Virus record (IMG/VR): IMGVR_UViG_3300013744_000001
Location: 12,475-76,474 of that record
Direction: 5' to 3' (one strand)
Source: a virus
Length of the DNA: 64,000 nt
Below are positions 18,223 through 46,461 of this stretch, piece after piece. Below the pieces are notes generated by a model. The model was not told the DNA's origin, ran no database searches, and saw nothing but the letters and a program-made list of their open reading frames with translations. Numbering within the stretch: the stretch's first letter is position 1; each line of letters opens with the position of its first letter. A program made the position numbers and the translations under genes.

Positions 18223-18227
18223 GCAAC

Positions 18228-19082: not shown

Positions 19083-19101
19083 TCATGGAGGAGGAAACAA
19101 A

Positions 19102-22733: not shown

Positions 22734-23237
22734 TTAGACGGGTAAGCGGACAAAGCCTTCTTTGTCCAGAGGTAATTTCGCAAGTCTTGAAACACTGAGA
22801 CCAAAGGTCTTTTGCACATGACAGTACTCCCTGAATGTCTTCCAGTCTCCGGCCCACTCCCAACCGGCCTCCTTGAACTGGCCCACAATCTCCATCCAGT
22901 CTGCCTTGCCGTCATGGTCAAAGTCCTGCATCGTATCCCACGAAGCATACTTGCCACCGTCAATAATGAGGCAGAAGTCCATGGCCAGACCATAGTTGTG
23001 CACAGACTGACCACCCTGTGCATTGGTGACAATTTTGCCCGGTCGGGCTCGGCCCATGCTGTACAGTACGTTCTGTTCGGCAACGCTCCTGAACCCACAG
23101 GTCACCCGCATTTTGGCTCTGCCGGTCAGCATCTCGTTGTTGATTTTCTCGAATAACAGAATCGCTTCATCCCGAAGTTTGGGATGAAGCGATGCAATTC
23201 GTCGTTCGCTTAAAGGATCACTGTGCATCGTTCTCAC
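22734..23237 (-). CDS. endolysin, peptidase M15 (L-Ala-D-Glu / D-Ala-D-Ala metallopeptidase family)
   Basis: 'RVTCGFRSVAEQNVLYSMGRA...GQSVHNYGLAMDFCL' contains the M15 SxHxxGxAxD motif, with the conserved R...Q...Y upstream. Confidence 0.7.
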   Translation of the reverse strand: MRTMHSDPLSERRIASLHPKLRDEAILLFEKINNEMLTGRAKMRVTCGFRSVAEQNVLYSMGRARPGKIVTNAQGGQSVHNYGLAMDFCLIIDGGKYASWDTMQDFDHDGKADWMEIVGQFKEAGWEWAGDWKTFREYCHVQKTFGLSVSRLAKLPLDKEGFVRLPV

Positions 23238-23604
23238 TCTGCATGGTAATTTCGAGAGCTTTGGAAGCGTCGTTCATTTCCATCAGCACATCACGAAGCC
23301 GCTTGGCAGCAGCTTTGAGGATACCGCGGAAGGTGTCGTCGTGAACCGTGTCCGCATACTTATCAATCCATTCCACAAACTTCAGTTCCTGTTCCTTGAA
23401 CATGCCCTCGAAGAGAACAAGACCGGCAGTGTACTCCCAGATCTTGTCATCCAAAGTACCCGGAATCTTGTTCGTTACTTTGGTACCACCTTCGTAAATC
23501 TTCTGCTTGAGTGCATAGATATTCTTGGGTGTGATGTGAGAAAGCGCCCAATCGACGAGGGCAGGAAGAACCAGCTGGATAATTCGTTTCTGTAGGATGT
23601 TCAT
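23218..23604 (-). CDS. hypothetical protein with one N-terminal hydrophobic helix (possible holin-like; tentative)
   Basis: 'MNILQKRIIQLVLPALVDWALSHI...'; translationally coupled (TGA-c-ATG) to the upstream gene; immediately upstream of the endolysin. Confidence 0.35.
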   Translation of the reverse strand: MNILQKRIIQLVLPALVDWALSHITPKNIYALKQKIYEGGTKVTNKIPGTLDDKIWEYTAGLVLFEGMFKEQELKFVEWIDKYADTVHDDTFRGILKAAAKRLRDVLMEMNDASKALEITMQSENDAQ

Positions 23605-23605
23605 G

Positions 23606-23938
23606 TCATTCCCCCTTTTCACTGTACATGGTGTCTGTGTAAAAATACGCTCCTGCAATCTCGCAGTAGCTTTCGCTCTGCTCGATATCATTGATGTCGT
23701 CGGTTACATAGATGCGCGCAGGCTTCAAAACAGTTACTTTCAGGTCCAGAACCTTGAAAGCGTCTGCAATGTTGGCAGCAAACTGCCTGCCGATGTGGTC
23801 AAAGACTTTGCCGTTCTTGACACTGTAACCCTTGTTCCTCAGCAGATCGGCATCGTAGACTTCTCGGCTGAGCGTCTTCATGACTACGTCGCCGTAGGCC
23901 AGAACAAACTCGGTCACGTTTACGCGTTTTCTTGCCAT
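23606..23938 (-). CDS. hypothetical protein (110 aa)
   Basis: ORF in the lysis-region operon. Confidence 0.4.
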   Translation of the reverse strand: MARKRVNVTEFVLAYGDVVMKTLSREVYDADLLRNKGYSVKNGKVFDHIGRQFAANIADAFKVLDLKVTVLKPARIYVTDDINDIEQSESYCEIAGAYFYTDTMYSEKGE

Positions 23939-24222
23939 CGAAGATTCCCCCTCTTTTCGAGCTTGTTAAAATTTTCTGCTATGTTCTTGAGGTCTCGTGC
24001 CATCTCGTTCAATTTGTTTTCCAGAGTCTTGTACTGATACTGTGATACTGCATTGTCAGTTTTGAGGTTGCTCAGTGTATGCTCTGTCTCATCCACCCTT
24101 CGTTTAATTTCATCTATCTGCATCGTCACCGACCTCAGGGAAACTTTTATCGTTGCATACGCTGTGCCGCAGGAGAAGATGACACAGAGTATCGCCCACA
24201 TGCCGTTCAGCTCGTCAATCAT
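23920..24222 (-). CDS. small membrane-anchored coiled-coil protein (holin/spanin-like; tentative)
   Basis: 'MWAILCVIFSCGTAYATI' TM segment followed by the heptad-like 'IDEIKRRVDETEHTLSNLKTDN...LENKLNEMARDLKNIAENFNKLEK'. Confidence 0.4.
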   Translation of the reverse strand: MIDELNGMWAILCVIFSCGTAYATIKVSLRSVTMQIDEIKRRVDETEHTLSNLKTDNAVSQYQYKTLENKLNEMARDLKNIAENFNKLEKRGNLRWQENA

Positions 24223-24983
24223 AGGCTTTGCCTCTTTGGTTTGAGCTTGTCACAAATCTTCTCCTTCCACTTCATCTGCTGGATCATGACACCGTCCGAA
24301 TGTCGTTTGCCTGTGTCCAGAAGAACCACATAATCCCGACCCTTGTCCGTAGGTACCCATGTACCGTTTATATTACTCTGAAATCCTTCATGTGCAAGAA
24401 GTTTGTTTACTTCTCTTGGACCGAAGAAACCAAGACGCTGTGCAATCTGTGTAGGAGTGAGGAAGAATTGCTGGTCAGGGTTCTTCAGTTCAATCTGCAA
24501 AAGCTTCAGGGGAGACACTTTATAAATGCGCATCATCGCATTGTCAGCCGACACTGTGGCCGCATTACCTTCGAGTCCGGCAGTAATAGCTATGCTCCTC
24601 AGAGCTGCAAACGTTCTGGATGTAAACTCTTCCGAAGTCATATTCGCTGTTGCCACTTTATACTGCCCAGTCTTGCGAATGGTCGGAAGTACTTCCTCGA
24701 AGATCCAAGCCTCAAACGCTTGGGCGGCCGGCAACTGGGAGCTTACGATTAATCTGTACAGATCAGGCTCTGTCAGGAAACGTATGTCCTGCACACCACC
24801 TGCTGTTTGAAGGGGGTAGCATTTTGCTACCCCCTTGCAATGTTGCTTGATGGCATCAGACGCATTGACATAGCCCAGAATTTCACAGACATCCTTGCCG
24901 CAGAAGAGAGGGTTTCCGTCGATATCAACGATAGTGCGAACCTGACCCTGACCATTGAAACTGAATACTGTCATTTCATTCAT
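24219..24983 (-). CDS. Bro-N domain antirepressor-family protein
   Basis: 'MNEMTVFSFNGQGQVRTIVDIDGNPLFCGKDVCEILGY...'; its C-terminal domain is similar to the 17476 and 50882 genes. Confidence 0.75.
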   Translation of the reverse strand: MNEMTVFSFNGQGQVRTIVDIDGNPLFCGKDVCEILGYVNASDAIKQHCKGVAKCYPLQTAGGVQDIRFLTEPDLYRLIVSSQLPAAQAFEAWIFEEVLPTIRKTGQYKVATANMTSEEFTSRTFAALRSIAITAGLEGNAATVSADNAMMRIYKVSPLKLLQIELKNPDQQFFLTPTQIAQRLGFFGPREVNKLLAHEGFQSNINGTWVPTDKGRDYVVLLDTGKRHSDGVMIQQMKWKEKICDKLKPKRQSL

Positions 24984-25056: not shown

Positions 25057-25329
25057 TTACATGGGCCGTCCGCCCCGACGCATTTCAGGAAACGTCGTAT
25101 ATCTGTCAAAGTTAGACTCGTCTAAAATAGGATTCCCAACATCGGTAATACCGATGTTGGGATTAATACTTGATTTTTCGTCATTATCGAGAGTGCTTAA
25201 CGCATCACTCAAGTTAACAATTTCCAGAATATCGCAGATGTCCTTGGCTACGAACCAGGGTTCTCCGTCTCTGACCACAGTGCGAATCTCGTGCTGGTTC
25301 TGAAAACTGAATACTGTTACTTCATTCAT
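25057..25329 (-). pseudogene. truncated Bro-N domain gene (N-terminal 55 aa Bro-N, then reads through a palindromic repeat)
   Basis: 'MNEVTVFSFQNQHEIRTVVRDGEPWFVAKDICDILEIVNLSDALSTLDNDEKSS' then the non-homologous 'INPNIGITDVGNPIL...', which is encoded by the palindrome. Confidence 0.5.
25131..25160. repeat. perfect palindrome 'CCCAACATCGGTAATACCGATGTTGGG', copy 2 of 2; lies inside the 3' end of the truncated Bro-N ORF
   Basis: Read directly; the flanking 'TCTAAAATA(G/A)' is also repeated ~112 bp from copy 1. Confidence 0.6.
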
Positions 25330-25441: not shown

Positions 25442-28400
25442 CTATTCGACGCTGATTCGCAACGACTGTCGCATAAGTTTGATTGCCCGATCCGTGTTGG
25501 CAATGGCGATGTCAATGGAATCCTTGTCCATGCGACTGGTGGGTACAGATTTGAGCAGATTGCGTTTCTTCTCCTCTAAAGAATTCAGCAACATAATGTC
25601 GAAGATGTTCTGCCCCTTGAGGAAAGCCATGGCGTTATCTTTGCTCACAAGCGTTGCCGCGTTCTTGCGACTGGTGGTCAGGTACTTATGAATCTCCTTC
25701 TCACTCAGACCGAAATCACGAATACCTTTGAGGAGGTAAACAGCCTTGTTCAGATCTTCGCGATTCTTCTCCCGAAGTTTTGCAATCCGCTCTGCAATAT
25801 CCCGTGCCGGCAAAGGTTGACCCTTGGACAGATCATCGACAAAAGCCCGCTTCTTGACGTTTTTGCTCAAGCTCCCCTGCTCTCTGATAAAGTAACCCAG
25901 ATGATTGGTCACATCTCTGACGTCATACTTGTTGACTGTAATGCCAGCGAGCTGGGGAACCTTTATCGCCCGACCCTTGCGAAAGTCAGTGTCTGTAGAC
26001 GGAAGCCCCACAGTCGCCTGAAGTATCTGGGTCATTACACCAGGCACCATCATACGTTTGCCAATAGCCGTGGCAGCCTCAGCAGGAGAAATCTCCCTGC
26101 CGAACTTGTCCTTGCCCATCAGATTATTGACCAACTCCTGTGTCATTGTACCCTGAGACAGATCCATGAAGTTCTTCATGGCCTCGATGATGCGCTGCTC
26201 AAATGTCGGATCCTCGGTCGCAGCCATAATGGGCGCATGGGTCAGCATGACGTTGTTACGGGCATAGTTGTAACCAAAGAACGAATACGGATCGTCGTGG
26301 TCACGCATGACAGGAAGGAACAGATTATTTCCTCCGTTCAACCAGTTCGTTATCCTCGTCGCACCGTGATACTCCGACGGATAGAAGAAGGAACGAGCAC
26401 GTCGTTTTTTCCGTTCATCATCGTCGTCATCCAGCTTAATAGCACCGAGCATGGTACCTAGTGCATAGGGCAGATAGGCGATGACACCCTTGGCTGCACC
26501 GAAGAGACCGTAGTACGTAGCCGTTGTCAAACCAACACCGATGCCTCTCTGTACAGCCTCCTTCGTCAAAGCGTCTTTGTACTCCTTCATTGCAGGTTCG
26601 TTTACATCGTCTCTGGCAGAGACCTTGCCCAGCTCCTCCATGACGTCGAAGAAGCGGGTATAGATCGCAGCGGTGATTCTGGCCATCTGGAAGTTATGCA
26701 TCAGGAAGTCCGGCGTAATCATGCGGATGGAATTCATCGACATGTGCCTGATGAGCTTGGGCGTATATTCCCATGACGTCGTTTCCTGTAGCGTCATCTC
26801 CGCAGCATCCTTGCCCGCCAGTCGTTCGTACTGCTCTTCTCTCAAACCAGGCGTGAGTGCCTTATGCTTGGCTAGCATGTTGTTGTAGTTGTTCATGAAG
26901 ACCCAAGGCTTCAGCCACTCGTCACCGAATGCGTAGAACTGACGCATCTTGTCCAGAGCATTCTTGACGATGTTCTCCAAACCATTCTGACTCATGTTGG
27001 AAACGACATTCAGGTCACGCAAGTAGGAAAAAATTGCGTGTATCGCCTTCTCGTGCCAGCCCTTGTTCCTGATCTGCATCATAGTGTCGGATGTCGTAGC
27101 GCCCCAGATATGGTACTTGTACATCATTTGCAGGAACTTGTTCTCAGCTTCGCTCAGGTTTTTGCTGTTTAGAAGCATTTTGTCTGCAAACTGTTTCCAC
27201 GATACATGACCGGCTTTCTTCATCATGCCGATGCGGAAGAGATGGCCTGACGACATGAGAATACCCAGACTGCCGATGTGGTTGCTGACTGCCAGGCGCA
27301 GACTGTAAATGGTACTGTTGGCCTTCATCGAGTCGATGGCACCGGACCAGGCAGCTTCGCGCACATTCCTGTTGACTTCGTACTCGTTGTCAAGCGCGTG
27401 CTGGAAAATGGGATCGACGGCCACATACTTCAAAATGGAACCGTCTTCGGCCCACGAAAGGCTGTCGCTGTAACTGCGGTCATGCTCGATAGATTGTCGC
27501 AGTACGCCCATGCCAGTGTCCAGAATATGTTCCGCCATCTCCTGGTTGAACGTTAGCTTTTGTAAAATCTTCTCCTGCTGATCAACAGAGTAGAGCAGTG
27601 ACTCGAAGAAGTTGGTGTTGGGATCGAGGAAGGTACGATAGAAGTTATCTTCCTCAGTATCTTCGAGTGTTCTGCCCCGAACAGCGGAGATGCGGTTCAG
27701 ATGATCCTCGCCGTAACCGTTGTTATTGTTACTCCTCGACGCTTCCATGATGAGCTGTTTGATTTCGGCACGCATGTTTCGAAGCAGCATCGTACGCCAG
27801 TCACTGCCGGCACGAATTTTGACTGCATTTGAGGTGCGCAGCTCGAAGTAATGCTTCAGAGCATCCAGCCGTTCTTTGTCTTTCAGCACCGTCCTTGCGT
27901 CCCTGGTACTGCTGAGGAACTGCTTGTAGGTAATCAGACCCGCCTGTTCCTGCTGTGTCGCCGCTTCGATGATACGTTCCGCATCTCTGGCCCGCTCGTT
28001 CACTGTCATCTCGCCAGCACCGGTGTCCGTCTCCAGATAGGAGAGCAAACGCTGCAAATCACGTACACCTGTCTCACCGTTGAAAACATTGTACATGCGA
28101 TGATCCCAGTCGGCGTGGAACCGGGACTCGAATTGCGCCATGCTCTTACGCATCCTGCCAATTGTTCGCTCATCGATCTTGGCAATGCGCATGCGCTTCT
28201 CCAGCTCCAGAGCCTGACCACGAATCGCACGCCTGATGTCCAGTGCATTGCGATACTTCATGGACGAAAGCTCAAGTGCTGTCGCATCGGCGAGTCTGGC
28301 CTTCTGCATCATAGCAGAATCGGGAGCAAAGCCTAGCCGGGTAAAAACCTGAGCAAAGGTCTCATTACCTCTGCCGCCAATGAGATTGGGATCGAAGTGT

Positions 28401-31400
28401 GCATCAAGCAGAGCAGACTTCAGATCCAGAAGATCGAGGAAACGTTTCCTCTGCTTGCTGGCCACAGTCTCCGAAACTTTGTTCCAGAAATTGCCGATCA
28501 GTCTGGAAGCATAGGCTGTGCCTACCGACTCGCCAAGCACCGCATGCTCAACGTTCAGGCTGGGGAAGAAACCCCAACCTTTCAGTCGATTGTGCATGGG
28601 GAAGTTGTTGAGAATGAATTCAGCTATAACATCGCCCTTCGAAAAAAACCTCCCCCACTTGCGAATAACCTCTCTGGTCTCGGCAACCTGCAAGGCTTCT
28701 CTAGTCTGCGGCACAGTCCTTCTGGTCTGACCGTAGTCGTTGGTTATGATCTGAATCTTCGAAAGCGGTGCTCTGGCACCCGTGGGTGACTGAAGTGTAT
28801 TCTGAATCAGCCTTGCGCCTCGGCCAACGACCGTACCCATTGTCAGAGCAATCAGATCTTTGGCAAACTTGTCTATCGCAGTGCGATCACCTATATTGAC
28901 AAGCAGGCTGTTACCGATCTTTCGCTCGATCTCTGCCATTACGCCCCAGAGTCTCTCGCGCATCGCTCTATACTCTTCGTCGCTGATGTGAAAAGCATTG
29001 GCGATCTGCGGACTGTCGTCCATAAGCGACGCATTGACATGAGCGAAGAATTCGTTGACCAGATACACCTTCCACTTGTCCGGTACAAGGTATGGGTCAG
29101 ATATACCCAGCATCTCAAAGTATTGCGGCAACTCGGCATAGATGGTTTCCGTATAGGCGTTGTAAATCCGCACAATTTCTGCATCCAGCGCCTTGCTGCC
29201 CCACATGGTCCAGCCGTAGTGAGAGCACTCGTGCATGACAGTTGCCAGCACCTGCGGAATGCTTCTGTCCCAGGCTCTGATGTGGATGGATTTGTCAGTT
29301 GCTCTGTAGGGGAAGAACAGACCGAAAGCGTTTCGCAGTATGGCTTTAGCCGTCCGGGTCTCTTCCCAATGAATCTCGATCTGCTCATACAGTTCGGGTG
29401 GGAGAATCCTTTGAAGGAATGCCTCCAGTTCCTCGGGCGTTGTAAGTCCCGGAATCTTTCGCACAGTACCGTCTTCATTTGTGCTGAAGAGCGTACCATC
29501 GTCGTAGTTCGTCGTCAGCTCGCTCAGACTGTCCAGAGCAGCTCTGAAATTCTCGTCCTTGCCATTGACATCTTCGAACACATACTCAGTATTGCCGCTT
29601 TCGGTACGCACAGATGCTGTACCATCTGCATTGTACTCAGGAACAACACTGTCATTCTCCTCGATGCCGGCCTGAATCGCTTCGTCCAAAATTTCATTCC
29701 GGGTAAGCTCGGATGCCGGAGGAGGAACAGGATGAGCAACATCGATCTCGCTGACATTGTTCTCCAGAGCACCGATGGCATTGGCAGCGCTCAACAGCTC
29801 AGCATCGGTGAGGGAGAGTGACGAAGGAGCTACGTGCAGAGCAAGCCCTGCGGCATCGTAAAGAGCATCGCGCACTTCGTTGAAGTGCGGATTCTCTTCA
29901 CCTTCGAAAATAACTTCCCGCATCATGGAGGCGAAGATACCTTTGCGATCAAAGGACTCTCCGTTCTGAGATTCTCTGACCAACATGCCGACAGTCGAGT
30001 CCAGAAGATCCTTGTCCGCTTCCAGGCTGGTCTGAAGTGCCCGCAGCAGATCGGTATCTCTGGCGTTGTCCGTCATCAGCACAGCACCATAGACCAGACT
30101 CTCCCGCTCATGGCCGGGCACAGTTTCGTCATACCGCATCGCAAAGCCACCGCCCTTGCGATTGTAGACACCAGGTGCACCCTGTATCTGCTGCCCTTCG
30201 ACAGTCTCGTCAGACGAACGTCCGGTATCCTGAATAGAAAAGAGTGGGAAGCCTTTGCTCTGAATACTGTTCCTTATCTCGTCGGTCAGCATCAGAGCCT
30301 GTCTAACGCCGATGTCCTGAATATCGACGTTCTCCAATTTCGCGTCAGGCGAATGATCGGAAAGAATATTCTGCATGGCTTTGGGTAGAGTCTTCTGATA
30401 CACCTCCAGTCTGCGCTTGCCCATGGTGTGCCAACGGTTGCTCTGATCTTCGGCACTGGTCCACGAAATACCGTCGATGTCACCCTGCTCCACAGCATGT
30501 GCGATAACCTGCTTTGCAACCATGGTAACCCATGCCTTCTGATATTTGACATAAGGCGCTTCGGGTCGCAGCTTACCAAAGAGCAAGTCGTTAGCCCAGT
30601 CACTCTGCACCTCTTCGACAAAGAGAATGCGTTTGCCGTCGGTCGTCTCTCTAGTATCGAATCGGGTATGTGCAACGAGATCTTTGCCCTCTCTGGGAAA
30701 ATGTCCCTGGTTAAACTCATCAGCTACGAGCTGCTCGTTCATGTCTTGCTCGACGACAAAATCAGAAGCACGTTTTAACGCCTCTTCGAGTGTGTCAGTA
30801 GTATATGTAACAGTTGTACCATCGGAAACGTTGGATATGTCATAAAAATCATCGTCACTAAAAACTTCTATGGTAAGCGCATACTTGTTGTCCTTCTCCA
30901 CATAATCTATATGCATATCTCGTCCCAGCATAGCATCTTCGGACAAAGTATAACGCAGCCCCCCATTAACAACCTCTTTGCGCCAATGACGAGGATCAAT
31001 CACAAACTCGTGCAAATACTCAAGTGTCGGCGTTTTCTTGTTCTGATAGAACAGAAGCTCCGCATAATCGGTTTTTCTTCCTTCCATTACGGAACCGGAG
31101 TAATGCGTAGGTAGATAAGAGCTCGTATCAGATGTAAGATATGCCAGTTCAGGATTGTTGTATATGTTTTGATTAAACCAATCGTTGAAATATGTTATAG
31201 CATCCTTGTAATTTTTGAACTGCTTTGCCCATTGCTTCCGAGCATTTCCGACAGCCTGCTGATTTGCCACAGGTTTGAACGTAGCATCAAGTATATTTTC
31301 GAGGCGAGTCTGCACATCATTGTTATTCAGCAACGTCGTAATATCATCGTTATTTATGGCAAGTATAACACGTCTGATCCCAGTGCCTGCAGAATGAACA

Positions 31401-34400
31401 CTCAATCTGCTCAACAAAGCATATGCAATCGGCTGATCAGCGAACAAATCACTGCTGACAGCAGCAAAAACATAATCTGACGACTCATGTTTTCTGATCC
31501 GAAGATCCCAGTCAGTGTTGTCAAGCGGCACACTTTGTCTGGCGTATCTGCCAAGCTTGCTGCGCGGACCGCCAAGCATTACATTTTTGAATTCAACATT
31601 GTTGCCGACCAGAAAATCATAGAGCTCTGCTGGCTCCACTATGTCGTTCGGGTCTTTGATTTCCAGCCACTCACGAACACCTGTCCAATACACCTCCTGA
31701 TTGAACGGTGAACTCTCGCCTCTGTTCTTGCTTTCATTGCCCCACTGTACCAGTCTGGACAACCATTTGGCAGCAGGAAGATTGCGAGATTGTTCTCCTA
31801 CCAACTCGGCCAGAGACGAATACCAAGGTACAGGTGATACCTGTTCACCGATATCATCTTCCGTAATTTCGCGTTCAACAAAATCTGCACGTGCCTTCAA
31901 CTGCTGAATGTACAAATCAATATCAGCCTGAGGCGTGTTGTTCTCGGCCAAAATATAAACGTGCTTGTGTTGTCTGGAAAGACCGGAACTGTACTGCTGC
32001 CCGATGTACGATACGTTGAAACCAAACAAACCTGGGTTGTTCATTTCGTTCAGATCAATCTCTTCGTCATATGCAAGCGCAGTTACAAACGGTACTCCGT
32101 TTTCCGTCATCTCGTGCATAAACACATACTCTGACATGTGTTCTCTGTCGACAGAGAGATAGTCGATAACAAACGTATCGTTGATAAATCGACCAAGCGC
32201 AAAATCAGCAGAAGTGGTGCCCGGCAACATCGCCTGTTGTCTGCGCATGATTATGTTCTGCAGCGCATCTATGCTTGACACTCTGTCGTTGAGCGAAGCA
32301 TATATAAACCCGTAGCGCCTAAGTCTGTCAAACCGAGTATTGAAGTTCGATATAGTTTCAGGGCTATAAAACACTACACCCTTGTCTCGCAGCTTCTTCG
32401 GTATTGCACTTTCCTTGGGTACAATGTGCTTAGCATTCGGTCCAAGATGAACAATACCGCTGTCCATCTCCTCGTACTGAACAGGCTTGTTCGATATGGC
32501 CATCGAGAACTTCGGCGTCGCCTCGTCAAAAACCTTGAACTCTCCCTTGCTGTTCTTCACCACAAGATTACCGTCCTCGGCCTGCTGTACCGCAGGAGGA
32601 GAAAGAGACGAATCCGTCTGCCAATCTCCATACCACGCCTTGAAGGAAGGTGTTTGAACGAAGTCCACCATGAGATCGCTTCGAGAACGAAGTTCCTGAT
32701 GAGCACTGAACAACTGAACAAAGCCCCGAAGCTCTTTTTCGAGGATGTGCTGGTCCTCCCGTGCAATATCTTCGGTCTGATACGCGGCAGATTCTCTACG
32801 CTCAGTTGCAGTCATATCGAGGCGGGTCTCTACATTGCGAGCCTCCGTCTCTCCGGCAATGGACTTGTACCATTTGATCGCAGCCAATTCCTGTTCATAC
32901 TCTTCCTTCCACGAACGAACGACACCCCATTGAGCGTCGAACTTCGTCTTGTCCATGCCTCTGAACGCGGGTACATTCCGCCTGACATAGTCGTAGAAAT
33001 GATCCCAGCCTACATTGTACAACTTTCTATAAATATCTCGCTCATATCGCTTTTCATTATAGTACGGAGTTTTTACAGCGAAGAGACGATTGATCAGTTT
33101 AACAAGTCGATTGATACTTGAGGCTTTGTACTTGTCAATCCGTACCTTTCGGGACAAATCTCCATTGGCTTTGACAGAAATCCCATGTGTTTTGAGATAG
33201 CCTGTCAGAAGAGATTTGTCCGTCATCAGTTTCAACCATGGGCCAGGAGCATTCTCTCTGGCTTTCTCCCTGTTTACATTTACAGGTGCTTCCTCAACAC
33301 TGCCCCCATTTGCAAAGCCTTCAATGTCCTGCACAGCATGCTGAATCTCATGCATCAATACCTGCTTTGCTTTCTCGGGCTTCTTCAGTAAATCATCGCG
33401 CAAATGAATACCGCGTTTTGGGCCAAAATATGTGCCTGCAACTCTGCTGTCGTCGTCAGCGCGATATGCAAAACGCATCTGCTGAAGCTCTGGGTACGCT
33501 GCGAACAATTCAGGTGCGTCGATTATTTTGCGCAAAGCCACAGGTACAACTTGCGCAAGTGCATGTATTGCTTCGTTTGTACGAACTGTAATACCAGAGT
33601 CGTCAAGCTCATAGCGCCACTTCCCGTCTTTGCCTCGCTCCCAACCTGTCGCCAGCTTGATGAGACTCACGCTCTTGTTGGCAGCTTCCATCTCTCTTGC
33701 TACAACCAGATTGTCAAGCCGCGTCGTTGCCGCTTCAGCGTTGTCCAAAGCAGCAGCACCACGTTCTCCGGCAAAGGAGAACTGTACATCTGATTCTTCA
33801 GAGGCTGTACGCTCATGAATTTTGTCCAACTCTTTACGCAACTCATCGATTGGCACACCCAGATTACGAGCCAAACCGTAAATCTGAGCATTCCTCGATA
33901 TTGTCTGACTGACATTGCGATCAAAGTCGCCGCGCCTGGCTGTACGCACAGCACCTCTGGCGAAGTTGACAATGTCCTGGTTAGTCAAACTGTCCGTATC
34001 GATGACACTCAGCTTGTACAAGTACGTCTTTATCCAGCTTACAATGCGACTAACGATACTCGTCGGGTTGCCGGCATTGGCCTCGACCAAATACGCTCCA
34101 ACCTCTTCCCAGAAATGACGATCGTTCGAATTAAGTCTGTTGCCTTCCTGCACCCGCCTGATGGCTTCCCGAATCTGACGACCTTCTTCACTGTCATCAT
34201 TCTGCCTATTCTTCAACTCATCCAGAATGCCTGTGAACTCCTCATCGCTGAAGCCAAAACGTCTGACATGCGCGCCAAGCTCGTGCATAAGCACAGCACC
34301 GGCGTCGCCTACCCTGATACCGTCACCCACAAGAACAACCTGCCCAGTTTCCGGAATAACAAAGCCCTGAATCAAACCTTCTCTGGAGTAGAACGGAGCT

Positions 34401-37400
34401 GTACCGTAGGCGGCAGCAATCAGTTCCTCGGCCTCTTCCTGTGTATCCACAAGTATCAGCGTCTCCGAACCCAGAAGATTGGCCAGACGACTGTCGCTCA
34501 TCAGCCGTGTACGTAGCAACTCTCTCAGAAGCGAGATACCTTTGGTACCTGCGCGACGAACTCTAGCAGCTCTGGTGTTTCGTGAAAACAGAGGCCCTGC
34601 CAGCACACTCACACGTGCGTTCATGGCAACAAGTGCGTCGACATCTTTTACGTCTGGAAGCGGCTTGGTCACTGGAAAACTGCGATTGAACAGATCCTCG
34701 ACCTTGCGCACCAGGTTCTGCATATCTTCCAGTGTCGAATTTCTGTCGTTCATGACCTCAGCAACTTCCTGACCCAGCTCACTGTTACTATCGAGGCGAG
34801 AACCAAGGACACCAGCGTAGATGCGCACGGCGTTGCGATAGAAATTGCGCTCCATCCTGTCGGCGATCTCTTCCAGCGCAGCAGCTTTCTCCTCGGGCGT
34901 TGACAGTTGATTCGCTGCTTCGACCTTTTTAGCCACACCAGAGAGTGCACTCATAGCACCCTTGCTGAGCCTCATCTGCTCCCGAATGGCTGCTTCCAAA
35001 TTTTGAATACGCTCGGTCTGCGTTTTTACAGCAAGTTCCGGTTGACCGGAAGTCACAGCATCTTCTGTACTGACAGACGTTGTCGCCTGGTCGTTGCTAT
35101 GACCCATCGGATGCAGAAGCGACTCATTAACAGAAGAGAAGAAGCCTTTTTTCGACGGCGTCCATGTCCAGCCCTGCGGCTCACCGAGCGGACTGAGGAG
35201 ATGAACATACTCTTTGACCTTGGCCAGAATATCGGCAAAGGGCGTATCCTCGCCGAACATCACAAGACTGTTGTCATTGTTGAACTGACTGAGAATGGCG
35301 TGAACGCTGACCAACTCGCCTGTCGCAGCTTCGGAGTTACGGCCTATATCCTCAAGCTTTGTATCATTGCTGAAAAGCTTTGCCTTGCTGATATCCTTTG
35401 TCCAGTAAATACCCGTATTACCAGACTTGGCAGAAACATACTCCGTTTCCCCGTCAGTGTTTACACGAGCAACAACGCGAGCGTCGATCCAGTTGGTACC
35501 AAAGACACTGCGCAAATCATCGAGACTGGTTGCGTTGAACAAACGTTCGAGTCTTGCAGGGAACGAATCTTCTTCCGCAGACCATTCAATGACGCGGTGC
35601 AGAGGTCGCTTGTCGCCGGTTGTCTTGCCACTCGTACGCCAGACAGCGTAAATCTTTCGTTTCGCACTATCCTTCTGATTGCGAGGATAGACGAAAATGA
35701 TTTCATCAGATACACCGGATTCAACAGGGAGAGAAATAGTCTCATATCCCTGGCGGCTCTTGCCCTGTAAAACACCGACGACATACTCGATACCTTGTCT
35801 GGCGTCGATCTCGTCGGTCATCTCATCCATGAATCTGGTGAGATTACCCTTGGTCAGAAGACGACCACGCTGGTTGCGAAGAATCACCTTGCCGCTATCG
35901 GTGACATAGAGACTTAGTAATGCGCCATTGTCTGTCACAAGAGAACGATAGTTGACATCGTTTCGACCCTCGTCATCAATGATTCTACTGAGACGAAGTC
36001 TGCGAATATCGTCATCGTTAAACTGCCACCAGGCTTTAGAGCCCTTCATCTGTCGCTGTACACGAATGCCTTCGGCAGGTGGACCAATGTAGATGCTCTT
36101 CGCAACCACCGTGCCCTGTCCTTCCTGATTGTTGGCATCGGGCTTGGCGTAAGCTGTGCGGATTTCCTGTCTCGCAACACGGTCATCCAGCTTTATCTGT
36201 GCACCTGTCTCCACATCATAGCCGTCAACCGTGGCATAGAGAGCACTGCTGTTGTTACTCTCGTGAAGCCTTGCATGATAAAGAATACCGTCTTTATAGG
36301 CATAGATGTCCCGACTTCCGATACCTCTGGACTTTCTTGTTTTGGCAGAAACCTGCTCAGGCGAGATGACAAAGTAACCCTGTTCTCTGAGCGTCTGCTC
36401 GATGTTTCTGGTGTCCTGAAGTTCTTCTCGCTTTGTGACGTTGCCGTCGTCATCCGTCTCTTCGACCTCCACCAACTCAAGGAAAGAAGCTCTGGTGCCT
36501 GATGCTCCCTGTCTGGGCACATCGGTCACGACGGGAATGGATACTGCCCCCGCAGGCGCAGTGTCTGTTACAAGCTCGGGAGGCGCAGTACCCTTGTATG
36601 TGTACAGCTCACGTTCCAGATAAGACAGCAGACCCTCATCACTCTGATCCTCGATCTTGCTGGCATCGATGGTCGTGCTCTTGTGAAACACAACCGCATT
36701 GTCGTTTGCATTATGCAGAGCAACGATTCTCTCGATCAGTCTGCCCGAACGATCACCGCGCACCGTAAGCGTCTGACCGGACGAGAATTTGACAGAAGCT
36801 TCGTCATTCTCGTTACGATGCTCTATCTGCTTTGCGTCGATTGTCTTCTTGGTTTGAGGATCGTTGATTGTAGCCAGAAGGCGTAAATATGCCTCGCGAT
36901 CCGAAGAACCTTCGGCAATGTACTTGCCGATAGACACAACACTGTCCTCCTGACCGGTAGCAGCATTTGTCAAACTGTCCCACTCGTACATGCCGTCCTT
37001 GCGTTTGGCATGAGGAAGTGTTGTCACCTCTTTGTCAGACACACCTGCGATAACATCCGTACCATCATCAGTGGGACTGAGATCGTCCCGATTGACACCT
37101 TTGATGTCTGTACGCTTGGGAAAACCGGCAGCAGGTCCAACGTCCAGCGGTCCTTCGTCGTCTCCTCTGATGATGCGATCGTTGAACTCTTTTTCTTCAG
37201 CACGCGATGTCAGTTTGTCCCCTGCCTCGGAAACTGTATGAATGCCTGCACCGGACGCTGCACCGACGAGGAAGGTATCGATACTCCTGTCAACAACGTC
37301 CATCGCACCATAGGTCGCACCCTTCAGGGCAGCAGAACCCATGGCAACATGTTCCTGCGCCGTTTCGGTTACACCTTCAAAGAGAGCGGCTCTGCCGGTG

Positions 37401-38590
37401 CGTTGCAGAATATTCCGATCTGCTTCCCGCATTGCGGCAATCTCTGCCCGCCTTGCCGATATCCTGCTCAGTTCGACTCTCGTGGCATTGCGAGCTGTAA
37501 CACCTCCGCGTGTGAACAAAGCCTTGGCTTCGTTAACAACACCGCCACCAACGACGTTGAGAGTACCGACAATATCCAACGACGCCGACGCAAGACCTGC
37601 GACAAGTGTGCTGGTCGGATGCTCGGGGTCGTAAACACCCTTTGCTCTTTCTTCCCCGCGTATTGCGCCCAGTTCCTGTGCAGAGGCAAAGATGCCCAGA
37701 CCGGTAAGAATACGACGGGCAATGCCCAAGCGCCCCGTCTTGGGAAGGAATCTGGCAACGCCTACAAGACCAAGAGATGGAGCAATCGATGCCCAGTTCT
37801 CGATCAGCATCTCGTTGACCTTGCCGACCAGAGCACCGAAACCCTCTTCCAGAAGCGTTTCTCTGGCACTCTTGCCATACGTCCGCTCATAGTTGCCGTT
37901 TTTGATATCTTCTTCAGTCTTGATCACAGCCTGATTGGCCCAGTCGCTGATCTGCTTCGATCCAAGCTGATCACCCACAAGACCAATAGCATCTGCCCAA
38001 TTCTGCGTAGCCTGCTTGACAGAATGCACAGCAGCACTGTCCCGCTTGACCGTTTCACCTTCCGCATCGGGCAGTGCCAGAGTTTTGGCATTGGACTTCA
38101 GAACCTCATCGACTGTCGTATACTCGTCGATACCCGATTTCTCAAAGAACAGCTTCTTGAAGTTGGCCTTGCTGACACCTTTCAGATACGGGAACTCATA
38201 CTTGGTCGTTCTGCCGATGACCCTGTTGGCCATCTTGTCCATGTAGTAGTCAAGGTTCTCGGTCTTTACCGGGTCCGCTTCGATGAACGCTCTCAAAGTT
38301 TGAAGATTCAGAACATCGTCCGGATTCTCCGATGGCTTCTGCAAACCAAAGGTACTGTGCGCATCGGGGAAGATATCAAAGGTCGTGTTCAATGCAAAGT
38401 CTTCGCGCTCTTCCTTGCTGGCCAGCGTAGGATCGCTCTTGGCAACCTTGAGCGCAGCGCCATATGCCTGCTTGATAGCATGGTCGTAGAGATAATTCTT
38501 CTGCTCGGCACTCAAATCATCGGCGCTGCCTTCAACACCCAGCGCTGCCAAATACGACTGATAATCGAACGTGTCCCTTGAATTTGCCAT
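25442..38590 (-). CDS. giant multidomain (polyvalent-type) protein, 4382 aa, with multiple zincin-like HExxH metallopeptidase motifs; probable virion-packaged / ejected protein
   Basis: Single uninterrupted ORF; terminal gene of an ATGA/1-nt-coupled minus-strand operon. HExxH motifs at 'VLMHELGAHV', 'VLMHEIQHAVQD', 'VFMHEMTENG', 'VMHECSHYGW'. No RNAP DxDGD or helicase motifs were seen. Confidence 0.8.
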   Translation of the reverse strand: MANSRDTFDYQSYLAALGVEGSADDLSAEQKNYLYDHAIKQAYGAALKVAKSDPTLASKEEREDFALNTTFDIFPDAHSTFGLQKPSENPDDVLNLQTLRAFIEADPVKTENLDYYMDKMANRVIGRTTKYEFPYLKGVSKANFKKLFFEKSGIDEYTTVDEVLKSNAKTLALPDAEGETVKRDSAAVHSVKQATQNWADAIGLVGDQLGSKQISDWANQAVIKTEEDIKNGNYERTYGKSARETLLEEGFGALVGKVNEMLIENWASIAPSLGLVGVARFLPKTGRLGIARRILTGLGIFASAQELGAIRGEERAKGVYDPEHPTSTLVAGLASASLDIVGTLNVVGGGVVNEAKALFTRGGVTARNATRVELSRISARRAEIAAMREADRNILQRTGRAALFEGVTETAQEHVAMGSAALKGATYGAMDVVDRSIDTFLVGAASGAGIHTVSEAGDKLTSRAEEKEFNDRIIRGDDEGPLDVGPAAGFPKRTDIKGVNRDDLSPTDDGTDVIAGVSDKEVTTLPHAKRKDGMYEWDSLTNAATGQEDSVVSIGKYIAEGSSDREAYLRLLATINDPQTKKTIDAKQIEHRNENDEASVKFSSGQTLTVRGDRSGRLIERIVALHNANDNAVVFHKSTTIDASKIEDQSDEGLLSYLERELYTYKGTAPPELVTDTAPAGAVSIPVVTDVPRQGASGTRASFLELVEVEETDDDGNVTKREELQDTRNIEQTLREQGYFVISPEQVSAKTRKSRGIGSRDIYAYKDGILYHARLHESNNSSALYATVDGYDVETGAQIKLDDRVARQEIRTAYAKPDANNQEGQGTVVAKSIYIGPPAEGIRVQRQMKGSKAWWQFNDDDIRRLRLSRIIDDEGRNDVNYRSLVTDNGALLSLYVTDSGKVILRNQRGRLLTKGNLTRFMDEMTDEIDARQGIEYVVGVLQGKSRQGYETISLPVESGVSDEIIFVYPRNQKDSAKRKIYAVWRTSGKTTGDKRPLHRVIEWSAEEDSFPARLERLFNATSLDDLRSVFGTNWIDARVVARVNTDGETEYVSAKSGNTGIYWTKDISKAKLFSNDTKLEDIGRNSEAATGELVSVHAILSQFNNDNSLVMFGEDTPFADILAKVKEYVHLLSPLGEPQGWTWTPSKKGFFSSVNESLLHPMGHSNDQATTSVSTEDAVTSGQPELAVKTQTERIQNLEAAIREQMRLSKGAMSALSGVAKKVEAANQLSTPEEKAAALEEIADRMERNFYRNAVRIYAGVLGSRLDSNSELGQEVAEVMNDRNSTLEDMQNLVRKVEDLFNRSFPVTKPLPDVKDVDALVAMNARVSVLAGPLFSRNTRAARVRRAGTKGISLLRELLRTRLMSDSRLANLLGSETLILVDTQEEAEELIAAAYGTAPFYSREGLIQGFVIPETGQVVLVGDGIRVGDAGAVLMHELGAHVRRFGFSDEEFTGILDELKNRQNDDSEEGRQIREAIRRVQEGNRLNSNDRHFWEEVGAYLVEANAGNPTSIVSRIVSWIKTYLYKLSVIDTDSLTNQDIVNFARGAVRTARRGDFDRNVSQTISRNAQIYGLARNLGVPIDELRKELDKIHERTASEESDVQFSFAGERGAAALDNAEAATTRLDNLVVAREMEAANKSVSLIKLATGWERGKDGKWRYELDDSGITVRTNEAIHALAQVVPVALRKIIDAPELFAAYPELQQMRFAYRADDDSRVAGTYFGPKRGIHLRDDLLKKPEKAKQVLMHEIQHAVQDIEGFANGGSVEEAPVNVNREKARENAPGPWLKLMTDKSLLTGYLKTHGISVKANGDLSRKVRIDKYKASSINRLVKLINRLFAVKTPYYNEKRYERDIYRKLYNVGWDHFYDYVRRNVPAFRGMDKTKFDAQWGVVRSWKEEYEQELAAIKWYKSIAGETEARNVETRLDMTATERRESAAYQTEDIAREDQHILEKELRGFVQLFSAHQELRSRSDLMVDFVQTPSFKAWYGDWQTDSSLSPPAVQQAEDGNLVVKNSKGEFKVFDEATPKFSMAISNKPVQYEEMDSGIVHLGPNAKHIVPKESAIPKKLRDKGVVFYSPETISNFNTRFDRLRRYGFIYASLNDRVSSIDALQNIIMRRQQAMLPGTTSADFALGRFINDTFVIDYLSVDREHMSEYVFMHEMTENGVPFVTALAYDEEIDLNEMNNPGLFGFNVSYIGQQYSSGLSRQHKHVYILAENNTPQADIDLYIQQLKARADFVEREITEDDIGEQVSPVPWYSSLAELVGEQSRNLPAAKWLSRLVQWGNESKNRGESSPFNQEVYWTGVREWLEIKDPNDIVEPAELYDFLVGNNVEFKNVMLGGPRSKLGRYARQSVPLDNTDWDLRIRKHESSDYVFAAVSSDLFADQPIAYALLSRLSVHSAGTGIRRVILAINNDDITTLLNNNDVQTRLENILDATFKPVANQQAVGNARKQWAKQFKNYKDAITYFNDWFNQNIYNNPELAYLTSDTSSYLPTHYSGSVMEGRKTDYAELLFYQNKKTPTLEYLHEFVIDPRHWRKEVVNGGLRYTLSEDAMLGRDMHIDYVEKDNKYALTIEVFSDDDFYDISNVSDGTTVTYTTDTLEEALKRASDFVVEQDMNEQLVADEFNQGHFPREGKDLVAHTRFDTRETTDGKRILFVEEVQSDWANDLLFGKLRPEAPYVKYQKAWVTMVAKQVIAHAVEQGDIDGISWTSAEDQSNRWHTMGKRRLEVYQKTLPKAMQNILSDHSPDAKLENVDIQDIGVRQALMLTDEIRNSIQSKGFPLFSIQDTGRSSDETVEGQQIQGAPGVYNRKGGGFAMRYDETVPGHERESLVYGAVLMTDNARDTDLLRALQTSLEADKDLLDSTVGMLVRESQNGESFDRKGIFASMMREVIFEGEENPHFNEVRDALYDAAGLALHVAPSSLSLTDAELLSAANAIGALENNVSEIDVAHPVPPPASELTRNEILDEAIQAGIEENDSVVPEYNADGTASVRTESGNTEYVFEDVNGKDENFRAALDSLSELTTNYDDGTLFSTNEDGTVRKIPGLTTPEELEAFLQRILPPELYEQIEIHWEETRTAKAILRNAFGLFFPYRATDKSIHIRAWDRSIPQVLATVMHECSHYGWTMWGSKALDAEIVRIYNAYTETIYAELPQYFEMLGISDPYLVPDKWKVYLVNEFFAHVNASLMDDSPQIANAFHISDEEYRAMRERLWGVMAEIERKIGNSLLVNIGDRTAIDKFAKDLIALTMGTVVGRGARLIQNTLQSPTGARAPLSKIQIITNDYGQTRRTVPQTREALQVAETREVIRKWGRFFSKGDVIAEFILNNFPMHNRLKGWGFFPSLNVEHAVLGESVGTAYASRLIGNFWNKVSETVASKQRKRFLDLLDLKSALLDAHFDPNLIGGRGNETFAQVFTRLGFAPDSAMMQKARLADATALELSSMKYRNALDIRRAIRGQALELEKRMRIAKIDERTIGRMRKSMAQFESRFHADWDHRMYNVFNGETGVRDLQRLLSYLETDTGAGEMTVNERARDAERIIEAATQQEQAGLITYKQFLSSTRDARTVLKDKERLDALKHYFELRTSNAVKIRAGSDWRTMLLRNMRAEIKQLIMEASRSNNNNGYGEDHLNRISAVRGRTLEDTEEDNFYRTFLDPNTNFFESLLYSVDQQEKILQKLTFNQEMAEHILDTGMGVLRQSIEHDRSYSDSLSWAEDGSILKYVAVDPIFQHALDNEYEVNRNVREAAWSGAIDSMKANSTIYSLRLAVSNHIGSLGILMSSGHLFRIGMMKKAGHVSWKQFADKMLLNSKNLSEAENKFLQMMYKYHIWGATTSDTMMQIRNKGWHEKAIHAIFSYLRDLNVVSNMSQNGLENIVKNALDKMRQFYAFGDEWLKPWVFMNNYNNMLAKHKALTPGLREEQYERLAGKDAAEMTLQETTSWEYTPKLIRHMSMNSIRMITPDFLMHNFQMARITAAIYTRFFDVMEELGKVSARDDVNEPAMKEYKDALTKEAVQRGIGVGLTTATYYGLFGAAKGVIAYLPYALGTMLGAIKLDDDDDERKKRRARSFFYPSEYHGATRITNWLNGGNNLFLPVMRDHDDPYSFFGYNYARNNVMLTHAPIMAATEDPTFEQRIIEAMKNFMDLSQGTMTQELVNNLMGKDKFGREISPAEAATAIGKRMMVPGVMTQILQATVGLPSTDTDFRKGRAIKVPQLAGITVNKYDVRDVTNHLGYFIREQGSLSKNVKKRAFVDDLSKGQPLPARDIAERIAKLREKNREDLNKAVYLLKGIRDFGLSEKEIHKYLTTSRKNAATLVSKDNAMAFLKGQNIFDIMLLNSLEEKKRNLLKSVPTSRMDKDSIDIAIANTDRAIKLMRQSLRISVE

Positions 38591-38591
38591 C

Positions 38592-39113
38592 TCAGTTCTG
38601 CTCCAGAATACCTTTGATTACATTGACCACATTGCGACCAGCCTTGTTTCTGCCGGCAAGCTGTTTGGACAGCATCCCGATGACATCGGCAAGTGTGGCT
38701 CTTGGAGGAATGACAATCGAACGAACTTCGGGCCTTGACTCGTTTATAACGTCAAGGAAACGCTTAATAGTACCCGAGTATATATCGTCACCGACAATCA
38801 CGGCATCTTCACCGAAGTGAAACGCCACTATCATATCGTCGATAGAACCGTACTGCTCGAAAAACATCCTGTCCATGATGGCTGTAGTACTGACATTGTC
38901 AGCCAGAGCGTAGACATTGACGTTGCCTGTCATCTGCGCAGCACGCTCAGGAAGCACAGGCATAAAGCCCTGCTTCCCGTCGATATCGTAGTACTCATCA
39001 TCTCCGCCGCTCACATACAAAGCCCTTGCGATATAGCCAAAAGGGTCGGGGTGCCCGAGCGGAAGAAGAATCCCGTTGTAAACTTCCTTGAGCTGCGCAG
39101 CACTCAGTTCCAT
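38592..39113 (-). CDS. hypothetical protein (173 aa), operon with the giant protein
   Basis: Its stop lies 1 nt before the giant ORF start; ATGA overlap with the upstream lipoprotein gene. Confidence 0.5.
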   Translation of the reverse strand: MELSAAQLKEVYNGILLPLGHPDPFGYIARALYVSGGDDEYYDIDGKQGFMPVLPERAAQMTGNVNVYALADNVSTTAIMDRMFFEQYGSIDDMIVAFHFGEDAVIVGDDIYSGTIKRFLDVINESRPEVRSIVIPPRATLADVIGMLSKQLAGRNKAGRNVVNVIKGILEQN

Positions 39114-39622
39114 TACGGTGCCTCTTTCGGTACTTCAGTTATTGTCGTAGTCGTCGTGCTCATATTGGCACCGGTGGTGGGCGAGTTGTCCTTGCCCGAA
39201 CCATACGTGTGACCTTTGCCCACCATTGTAACCTTGTCACCGGCACTTTTCAACGCCTGTTTCATCACGTTGGCACCGGCAACAATGCCGGTTACAGCAA
39301 TGCCTCCGGTGACGGCACTACCAACAACCTGCGCCAAAGCCTGATTCTGCGCATCGGCAACATAATTGATGGCATCATAGGCATTGGTCTTAACCAGATC
39401 AGCACACCGATCCGCCTTACCGGCCAACGCTTCGACAGCCACAAGCAAAGCCTGGTCCTTAACATCGGCATACTGCGGCGCCTGTGCCTGTTTGCTTTTA
39501 TAACAGCTCTCCACCATCCTTGCCTGCGCATTGGCTATCTCCACATCATACTGTGTAAGCTTGTGTCCTGCGCAGGAGGAAAGGAAGAGAACGGGTAAAA
39601 CGAACAATGTCGTACGTTTCAT
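39113..39622 (-). CDS. lipoprotein (signal peptide + lipobox 'LSSC')
   Basis: 'MKRTTLFVLPVLFLSSCAGHK'; Ala/Gly-rich; C-terminal 'TTTTIT'. Confidence 0.55.
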   Translation of the reverse strand: MKRTTLFVLPVLFLSSCAGHKLTQYDVEIANAQARMVESCYKSKQAQAPQYADVKDQALLVAVEALAGKADRCADLVKTNAYDAINYVADAQNQALAQVVGSAVTGGIAVTGIVAGANVMKQALKSAGDKVTMVGKGHTYGSGKDNSPTTGANMSTTTTTITEVPKEAP

Positions 39623-46459: not shown

Positions 46460-46461
46460 GT

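Follow-up and report, generated by a model that had tools for sequence, protein, structure and literature searches.

The gene and its operon

The window analysed here comprises 64,000 nucleotides of the IMG/VR virus record IMGVR_UViG_3300013744_000001 (positions 12,475 to 76,474), and all coordinates below count from its first letter. On the minus strand, at 25442..38590, it contains a single unbroken open reading frame (ORF) with an ATG start that encodes a protein of 4382 amino acids (aa), the stop codon being included in the range. This protein, here called the giant, is the subject of the present analysis. An earlier note, made from the sequence alone, had described it as the product of one ORF and as the terminal gene of a translationally coupled minus-strand operon, and both descriptions are confirmed. 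The gene is the last in a string of tightly coupled minus-strand genes whose junctions are overlaps or near-overlaps: TGAcATG between the genes for a 268-aa and a 203-aa protein, TAAatcATG between the latter and the gene for an 804-aa protein, an ATGA overlap between the 804-aa and 169-aa genes, a TAATG overlap between the 169-aa and 173-aa genes and, finally, TGAgATG between the 173-aa gene and the gene of the giant. A weak terminator-like hairpin is found 67 nt beyond its stop codon.

The unusual length of the ORF is the only point in favour of an artefact in which assembly or annotation has joined several genes, and the probability of such an artefact is negligible. An identical 4382-aa product is present on 10 contigs of several assemblies, including ENA ERZ1757551 and JGI 3300013740, and intact homologues of 3793 to 4747 aa exist in other lineages. 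Furthermore, in a comparison with the allele on contig L002, synonymous changes predominate along the entire length, with a ratio of nonsynonymous to synonymous divergence (pN/pS) of about 0.02 to 0.17; the giant is under strong purifying selection. An assembly fusion, one of two objections that the earlier note had raised against itself, is excluded. The other objection, a repeat or tape-measure-like protein, is ruled out as well, since a self-comparison of the giant did not reveal internal repeats.

Zincin domains of the central region

At least four HExxH motifs had been attributed to the giant, but a regular-expression search finds only two strict ones, HEIQH (aa 1747) and HECSH (aa 3120), where chance alone would give 0.11. 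The stretch VLMHELGAH holds an HExxxH motif instead (aa 1436-1441), and VFMHEMTENG (HEMTE) was rejected as a zincin motif, as it is missing the second histidine and its surroundings are not conserved in the family.

The HExxxH motif belongs to a putative zincin-like metallopeptidase (MPTase) variant at aa 1403-1540 (33971..34384, minus strand). A profile built from 64 segments of polyvalent proteins, with the giant excluded, matches this region with 19 bits and an independent E-value of 5e-8 for one sequence; the segments were taken from a database domain that is usually located after MuF_C. The conserved residues are H1436, E1437, G1439 and H1441, and they are joined by a WEE helix at 1494-1496, so that the HELGAH helix is combined with a downstream glutamate helix (W-E1495-E1496). 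In the family alignment, HExGxH is invariant across all lineages, with the WEE helix about 55 residues downstream, and aa 1401-1500 form the most conserved stretch within the N-terminal half. An HEXXXH variant of MPTase has been described among polyvalent proteins (PMC5512222). Judged by this conservation, the predicted HExxxH peptidase is part of the conserved core of the family and not a swappable effector. Because it is invariant, a role in self-processing, as hypothesized by Iyer et al., seems to fit better than a role as an anti-host effector.

The second domain lies in a module composed of LPD23 and an HExxH zincin (aa 1598-1950; 32741..33799, minus strand). Pfam recognizes LPD23 at aa 1619-1669 with 47.6 bits against a gathering threshold of 27 and gives a weak SprT-like signal at HEIQH, and PHROG 13543, the sole PHROG match of the giant, spans aa 1589-1764. 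None of the module's invariant residues is missing: the giant has H1747, E1748, H1751, E1757, G1913, E1914, R1918 and N1919. Here, too, a glutamate helix follows the HEIQH helix (aa 1747-1751): it reads G1913-E1914-x-E-A-R1918-N1919 and corresponds to GE(V/T)EARN in homologues. The LPD23 module has a putative zincin fold and is counted toward the polyvalent identity discussed below.

The HECSH region, at aa ~3040-3195 in the C-terminal part (29006..29473, minus strand), is different. It fails as a zincin helix, and its histidines are unconserved: three of five lineages have HExSH in the equivalent segment, one has REASR and another WELSR. The zincin profile matches it faintly (0.3 bits, independent E-value 0.03). 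C3122, the sole cysteine of the giant, is located in this region, which is at best a presumed zincin relic. The searches establish two predicted zincin domains with complete sets of catalytic motifs in the central region. Of the several fused metallopeptidase-like domains that had been suggested, two are therefore well supported, while the third (HECSH) is degenerate and the fourth does not exist.

A polyvalent block with unnamed modules

Polyvalent proteins, as described by Iyer et al. (2017), unite numerous catalytic and LPD domains in a single chain, with the zincin MPTase, including its HEXXXH variant, as a hub domain; the giant resembles them in both respects. A homologue search with aa 1500-2900 retrieved 464 proteins, all of which match a module of about 350 aa with the order LPD23, HExxH and GE(V/T)EARN helix. 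The domains of these homologues include ART-PolyVal, LPD3, MuF_C, PBECR1-3, LPD38, DUF6782, M78 and SprT. In the giant itself, several domains of this network (LPD23, the HExxxH MPTase, the HExxH zincin and the X-QSDW module described below) are found in one polypeptide, and the gene stands in a delivery-related context, a phage late operon with tail tube B, a lytic-transglycosylase-like protein and an endolysin. These matches demonstrate, at the level of sequence, that the central block of aa ~1400-2800 belongs to the polyvalent-protein network. The designation as a polyvalent-type protein was thus well founded: LPD23 scores above threshold, the 464 homologues are polyvalent, and a sister allele carries ART-PolyVal. 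The domains for which a search had been recommended are present in part. LPD and zincin/MPTase domains are found; MuF or MuF_C was not found by Pfam, though many homologues have MuF_C, and SNF2, methyltransferase and ADP-ribosyltransferase (ART) domains are absent from the window allele.

The giant also differs from the common type. Typical phage-type polyvalent proteins measure 800-2400 aa and often have MuF or MuF_C, whereas here the polyvalent block constitutes about one third of the protein and is placed between two large family-specific modules.

Within the block, a TPxFKxWxGDW linker motif at aa ~1975-2000 (32591..32668, minus strand) is typical of junctions in polyvalent proteins. By blastp, it matches four collected proteins (P0013, P0048, P0016 and P0033) directly upstream of their ART-PolyVal domains. 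Two unnamed domains follow. Domain X, at aa ~2240-2390 (31421..31873, minus strand), has 64 blastp matches among the collected proteins, and other giant proteins have it 200-270 aa upstream of the second domain, QSDW. The latter extends over aa ~2578-2800 (30191..30859, minus strand) and is detected by a profile of 10 homologues with 24.6 bits (1.7e-9). Its conserved residues are H2630, H2641, R2643, R2647, E2660, the Q2662-S-D-W2665 motif, K2693 and R2719. X and QSDW occur in the same order in many proteins of 2000-7000 aa, and there are also carriers of about 500-700 aa. A search with aa 2000-3199 gave 1751 representative hits, most of them to the QSDW region, and the X-QSDW module is shared with more than 1000 representatives; its carriers include hundreds of giant proteins with multiple domains. 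Pfam has no match in the QSDW region of the giant and no family in four short QSDW carriers (P0139, P0151, P0173 and P0157), while in two giants with QSDW it recognizes LPD23 only, plus DUF6782 in one. X-QSDW is therefore a widespread module, with over 1000 representative hits, that is without family assignment.

Cassette exchange between alleles

Contig L002 (IMGVR_UViG_3300013750_000001) carries at 1552-15777 an intact allele of the giant of 4741 aa. Its identity to the window protein is 95% for aa 1-1607 and 99% for aa 1597-4382, and exactly where LPD23 begins the L002 allele contains 359 extra aa in frame (L002:6349-7431). This insert is an ART-PolyVal domain by Pfam (57.9 bits). The resulting order of ART, LPD23 and zincin is common among database polyvalent proteins. 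At the corresponding junction of the window allele, the sequence SDVQFS (aa ~1599-1604; 33779..33796, minus strand) looks like a blend of the insert's ends, SNVQYS and SNILFS, and the difference between the alleles is consequently a clean in-frame gain or loss of a cassette. What is seen here is cassette swapping between alleles of 95-99% identity.

The synonymous divergence (pS) between the two alleles is uneven. It amounts to about 0.25 over aa 1-1800, to about 0 over aa 1801-3000, to 0.005-0.09 over aa 3001-4200 and to 0.30 over aa 4201-4382. This mosaic indicates that the gene recombines internally. The central region, whose composition varies among family members and whose recombination history is unlike that of the flanks, is shown by these comparisons to behave as an exchangeable cargo bay. 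The allele pair amounts to a natural experiment, in which near-identical proteins differ by one ADP-ribosyltransferase cassette and the central region has its own recombination history, and it makes the ideas of a cargo bay and of a self-processing protease directly testable.

End modules and the six-lineage family

The N-terminal region conserved in the family comprises aa 1-1400 (34391..38590, minus strand), and the C-terminal, family-specific module comprises aa 2798-4382 (about 1585 aa; 25445..30199, minus strand). When 1.84 billion representatives were scanned in full with HMMER, P0121, which is 93% identical, was retrieved together with four distant relatives of full length, P0122 (4036 aa), P0123 (4747 aa), P0124 (3793 aa) and P0125 (3981 aa). 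A further family member of 4053 aa is encoded on the metagenome contig L004. With P0122-P0125 and the L004 giant, the N-terminal region shares 24-30% identity and the C-terminal module 32-36% over about 1600 aa, with more than 40% in aa 3600-4300. Both end modules are kept in all six lineages, and only five other metagenomic lineages share them, while the middle (aa ~1950-2800) is not common to the family members. Two thirds of the giant, the end modules, are thus a family-specific scaffold and not a string of effectors.

Outside the family, the end modules have no match in Pfam, PHROGs (five C-terminal modules scanned), NCBIfam, GenBank phages or the PDB. A megablast search of the whole gene against GenBank phages and a tblastn search of aa 2201-4382 against phages gave no match, and PDB sequence searches with the single protein, with a C-terminal family profile and with a whole-family profile gave nothing significant. 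Word-index homologue searches with aa 1-1500 and aa 2901-4382 found none; the full HMMER scan nonetheless revealed the distant relatives. When collections of IMG/VR, metagenomes and genomes were scanned with the single protein, one near-identical contig was found, and IMG/VR has no second one. Scans of the same collections with the family alignment added a single, distant contig from a metagenome, whereas 185,579 species genomes yielded no prophage.

Each end module has one conserved hydrophobic segment. The N-terminal one, rich in glycine, was located by hydropathy windows at aa 261-352 (37535..37810, minus strand); it is a suggestive candidate for a membrane-interacting region by analogy with the N-terminal domain of N4 gp50. 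The C-terminal one covers aa ~4015-4054 and is followed by DDDDDERKKRR, an acidic and basic cluster with which the conserved stretch extends to aa ~4065 (26396..26548, minus strand; ...GIGVGLTTATYYGLFGAAKGVIAYLPYALGTMLGAIKLDDDDDERKKRR). The C-terminal module is predicted to be mostly alpha-helical, and an AF2 model of the last 1200 aa, made from six sequences, consists mostly of helices with a pLDDT of 53.

As a separate observation, aa ~712-775 of the giant (window ~36266-36454; family-profile positions 722-776) match weakly, and below significance, the N-terminal half of an Hjc resolvase (E 0.6-0.9). Archaeal Hjc is a Holliday-junction resolvase with the PD-(D/E)xK fold, of which the catalytic E-x-K is not kept in the giant.

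Operon partners and genome context

Of the genes that precede the giant, the 804-aa one (39619..42033, minus strand) encodes a lytic-transglycosylase-like (LT-like) protein with the motifs AESRG...GFYQIT from aa 340; its Pfam SLT score of 16.2 bits is below the cut-off of 21.3. The next product, of 169 aa (39113..39622, minus strand), is a lipoprotein with the signal peptide MKRTTLFVLPVLFLSSC and the lipobox LSSC, and it is 36% identical to the syntenic gene product of L004. Both proteins had been listed in the earlier note, and both assignments hold, the first through its ES...GFYQIT motifs and with a sub-threshold SLT score. The 173-aa protein (38592..39113, minus strand) is a candidate small ejection protein with 49% identity to its syntenic L004 counterpart, and its position is likewise occupied in L005 and L006. 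Apart from its LT-like motifs, the 804-aa protein has a glycine-rich hydrophobic segment at aa ~531 and, near the C-terminus, a perfect (QPA)9 tandem repeat (window 39841-39921).

Eight ORFs upstream of the giant, a 591-aa protein (44693..46468, minus strand) resembles the tubular tail protein B, or nozzle, of the F116 homology group (PHROG 511, E 2.7e-25), and it has a tblastn match to orf17 of Sinorhizobium phage PBC5. Hardies et al. list this orf17 as the tubular tail B of the F116 subgroup, and the gene six places downstream as the internal virion protein (IVP) IVP-D (PMC4819975, Table 2). On the other side of the giant, a lysis-type cassette (22734..24222, minus strand) contains small ORFs of 100 and 110 aa, an ORF of 157 aa and an M15 peptidase endolysin at 22734..23237, which is recognized by Pfam as Peptidase_M15_4 and VanY. 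The overall order is therefore tail tube B, several small ORFs, the LT-like protein, the lipoprotein, the 173-aa protein, the giant, small ORFs and the endolysin, with an Ant/Bro-N moron inserted in the window between the giant and the lysis genes. In L004, the stretch from lipoprotein to endolysin recurs at about 35% identity, and in L005 and L006 the entire order recurs, also at about 35% identity, starting from a 590-aa ORF in the position of tail tube B. The giant thus occupies the syntenic position of IVP-D, as the last large gene after tail tube B and the IVPs and before lysis.

The closest parallel is gp60 of Pseudomonas phage H66, a phage from the F116 homology group, which has been interpreted as an IVP-D with an intracellularly acting domain (PMC4819975). 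H66 gp60, a 'PLxRFG domain-containing protein' of 3787 aa, was verified in virions by mass spectrometry, and its gene is followed by holin, endolysin and spanin genes. As in H66, a giant single ORF ends an operon for tail and internal proteins immediately before the lysis genes. In both proteins the centre holds LPD23 together with two zincins, an HExxH one and another, and the H66 segments align with aa 1598-1765 and 1886-1942 of the giant and, weakly, with aa 1405-1554. The similarity is confined to about 350 aa with about 29% identity. Unlike the giant, H66 gp60 has a methyltransferase-like domain, LPD3 and a PLxRFG C-terminal domain of about 760 aa, and the end modules are not detectably related except for a hint over some 60 residues, in which aa 390-453 (EGxTE..QE motif) align to the N-terminus of the H66 gp60 family with an hhalign probability of 46% and E 2e-4. 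Sequence homology to the IVP-D/PLxRFG domain is not found in the giant. NCBIfam gave no PLxRFG or other match at E<=1, and a profile of the PLxRFG C-terminal domain from 18 sequences (H66 gp60 and 17 other collected giants) scores at most 0.2 bits against the family, with an hhalign probability of 0.6% for the C-terminal module. Tile profiles of H66 gp60 reveal no relation to the family outside the effector block, and the N-terminal tiles fail too.

Near-absence of cysteine and the site of action

Among the 4382 residues of the giant there is a single cysteine. Cysteine averages 1.79% in the other 38 ORFs of the window, on both strands, so that 78 would be expected (Poisson P ~8e-33). Neither the 804-aa nor the 173-aa partner has any, and the family members have 0-4 each. 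The same composition is seen in H66 gp60, with one cysteine, and in H66-type giants of up to 6796 aa, 14 of 16 others checked being devoid of it. At the opposite extreme stands a 696-aa ORF of the window (56533-58623) with 31 cysteines (4.45%). Lokareddy et al. (2024) showed for Schitoviridae that the three-gene ejection operon is marked by a suppression of cysteine, which they linked to passage through the periplasm (PMC11445570). The giant shows the near-absence of cysteine that is characteristic of such operons, and the composition offers independent support for an ejection of the giant and of two of its operon partners. Cysteine counts can flag ejection proteins in phages without recognizable homologues.

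These observations bear on the question of whether the protein is delivered at all. It could be imagined that the giant is an unpackaged, late cytoplasmic or secreted multi-enzyme, such as a toxin, a superinfection-exclusion protein or a host-takeover factor, which merely lies within a structural operon. A packaging domain such as MuF or DarA-N was not detected in it, its packaging is argued from synteny, analogy and composition, and Iyer et al. note a polyvalent-like class without clear delivery context (PMC5512222). Such a protein seems quite improbable, considering that the gene is translationally coupled to tail and ejection genes in a synteny that is preserved across phages with about 35% identity, that its positional equivalent in H66 is a verified virion component and that cysteine suppression is common to the giant and two operon partners and does not extend to the other ORFs tallied in the window, with their average of 1.79%.

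A second possibility is that the protein is delivered and remains outside the cytoplasm, as a structural or envelope-penetration protein of the virion (a central needle, for instance, an extended tube or a conduit in the periplasm), with peptidases acting on the envelope or the periplasm. The late-operon position beside the LT-like protein and the lipoprotein agrees with this, as do the long helical modules at both termini, and cysteine suppression fits residence in the periplasm as well as transit through it. We regard this possibility as unlikely, if less so than an unpackaged enzyme. The network partners of the LPD23-zincin, the HExxxH MPTase and ART-PolyVal are DNA methylases, SNF2 proteins, RNases and ARTs, which act intracellularly; moreover, ADP-ribosyltransferases require NAD+, which is cytoplasmic.

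Comparison with N4 and T7

The virion RNA polymerases (vRNAPs) of Schitoviridae, N4 gp50 and DEV gp71, have an MPTase-like HExxH region, are devoid of cysteine and are co-ejected with two smaller cysteine-free proteins. Unlike N4 gp50, the giant has no detectable RNA polymerase (RNAP) domain and no sequence similarity to it. A single-subunit RNAP domain is not found in the giant, and the tubular tail B of its phage points to a different tail group, since N4 is without one. Size and position are nevertheless like those of N4 gp50, MPTase domains are a constant fusion partner of N4-type vRNAPs (PMC5512222), and some 3000 residues of the giant are unassigned. A highly divergent vRNAP (cf. N4 gp50 and crAss-like gp66) could thus in principle be hidden in one of the unassigned modules. 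With neither the single sequence nor the family profile is there an RNAP match in Pfam, PHROGs, NCBIfam or the PDB; a DxDGD-type motif was not found, and no polymerase-like relatives appeared in a full-sensitivity scan with aa 2000-3199 or in word-index searches with aa 1-1500 and 2901-4382. On current evidence a hidden RNAP is rejected, its probability being very low.

In T7, gp16 (IVP-D) acts with gp14 and gp15. Like gp16, the giant would be the largest of three proteins in an ejection set that is encoded after the tail tube genes, and lytic transglycosylase activity is associated with the T7 set, as LT-like motifs, recognized from sequence, are with the present one. Unlike in T7 gp16, the LT-like domain is placed on the separate 804-aa protein, and the giant is more than three times longer, carries predicted enzymatic cargo and is without detectable homology.

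A probable ejected polyvalent protein

Taken together, the analogies suggest that the giant is probably the largest internal virion (ejection) protein of an uncultured F116-group-like podovirus, and that it is built as a polyvalent protein. It most likely takes the functional place that T7 gp16 (IVP-D), H66 gp60 and N4 gp50 hold in their phages. This interpretation is supported by the gene layout from tail tube B through the giant to lysis, which is as in H66 and is kept in relatives with about 35% identity. The earlier note had spoken of a DNA-ejection or internal-virion-protein module; the IVP-D position and the cysteine suppression agree with this, and the packaging is inferred. Several points weigh against the interpretation. 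The case for packaging and ejection is made from synteny, analogy and composition, a MuF or other known packaging domain was not found by Pfam, and the end modules are without detectable homology to T7 gp16, to the PLxRFG domain of H66 gp60 or to N4 gp50. None of the hydrophobic segments is clear-cut as a transmembrane helix, and Foldseek with the AF2 model of the last 1200 aa returned only noise and no fold match, the pLDDT of 53 being too low. Finally, protease activity, self-cleavage and host targets are predictions.

An ejected polyvalent protein could be imagined to work as follows. A few copies of the giant would be packed in the capsid together with the cysteine-free LT-like and 173-aa proteins. 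At infection, they would leave through the tail in a largely unfolded state and cross the oxidizing periplasm; such a transit would explain the near-total avoidance of cysteine. The conserved helical end modules, with their hydrophobic segments, may serve in encapsidation and in the formation or anchoring of a conduit across the envelope, roles that have been proposed for the N-terminal and C-terminal domains of N4 gp50 and for T7 gp16. The central region (aa ~1400-2800) would be arranged as beads on a string and refold on the cytoplasmic side, where it would present two putative zincins with complete motifs and the unnamed X-QSDW module. Iyer et al. hypothesized that the MPTase processes the polyvalent polyprotein (PMC5512222). 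Following this idea, the invariant HExxxH peptidase would cleave the giant into working pieces, and the LPD23-HExxH zincin, X-QSDW and, in the sister allele, the ADP-ribosyltransferase might attack host targets early in infection. That the central bay is exchangeable, among family members and between alleles, is seen from the sequences.

The central domains are of a known polyvalent kind; what seems to be new here, judging from the searches, are the end modules, which are known only from six metagenomic lineages. A more far-reaching proposal, possible but rather doubtful in our view, is that the six-lineage family represents a previously unrecognized ejection scaffold, made up of an N-module of about 1400 aa and a C-module of about 1585 aa, which replaces IVP-D/PLxRFG in a branch of F116-group-like podoviruses and has both a built-in HExxxH protease for the release of cargo and a central bay in which ART, LPD23-zincin and X-QSDW are swapped in frame. 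In the infection by podoviruses, nothing is less well understood than the giant ejected proteins, N4 gp50 and H66 gp60 among them, and what polyvalent proteins do in early anti-host warfare is for the most part a prediction. The giant joins both ideas in one protein of 4382 aa.

Other features of the phage genome

Five genes or gene fragments of the window resemble anti-repressors of the Bro-N or Ant type (24219-24983, 49661-50419, 50882-51673, 17476-18222 and 25057-25329), three of which are full paralogues (PHROG 130, E 1e-53 to 1e-59). Two near-identical palindromes of 25 nt, CCAACATCGGTA[T/A]TACCGATGTTGG, lie at 25022-25046 and 25136-25160, each followed by a T-rich tail. One is situated in the gap between the Bro-N fragment (25057..25329, 90 aa) and the Ant-like gene (24219..24983), and the other within the 3' part of the ORF of the Bro-N fragment. 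They may be terminators or operators of the moron between the giant and the lysis genes.

The plus-strand arm of the window (672-20133) encodes a DUF2800/PD-(D/E)xK nuclease, an SNF2 helicase, a C5 cytosine methylase and a GT4 glycosyltransferase. Neither Pfam nor PHROGs has a match for several ORFs of 560-685 aa in this arm and for most structural ORFs of the minus strand, and the phage is very divergent overall. As to its host, this may belong to the Bacteroidota. Among phages, the M15 endolysin (22734-23237) matches those of Riemerella best, with 52% identity, and phages of Cellulophaga, Flavobacterium and Parabacteroides are among the 152 records that match it; many homologues of the LPD23 module come from Bacteroides or Prevotella.

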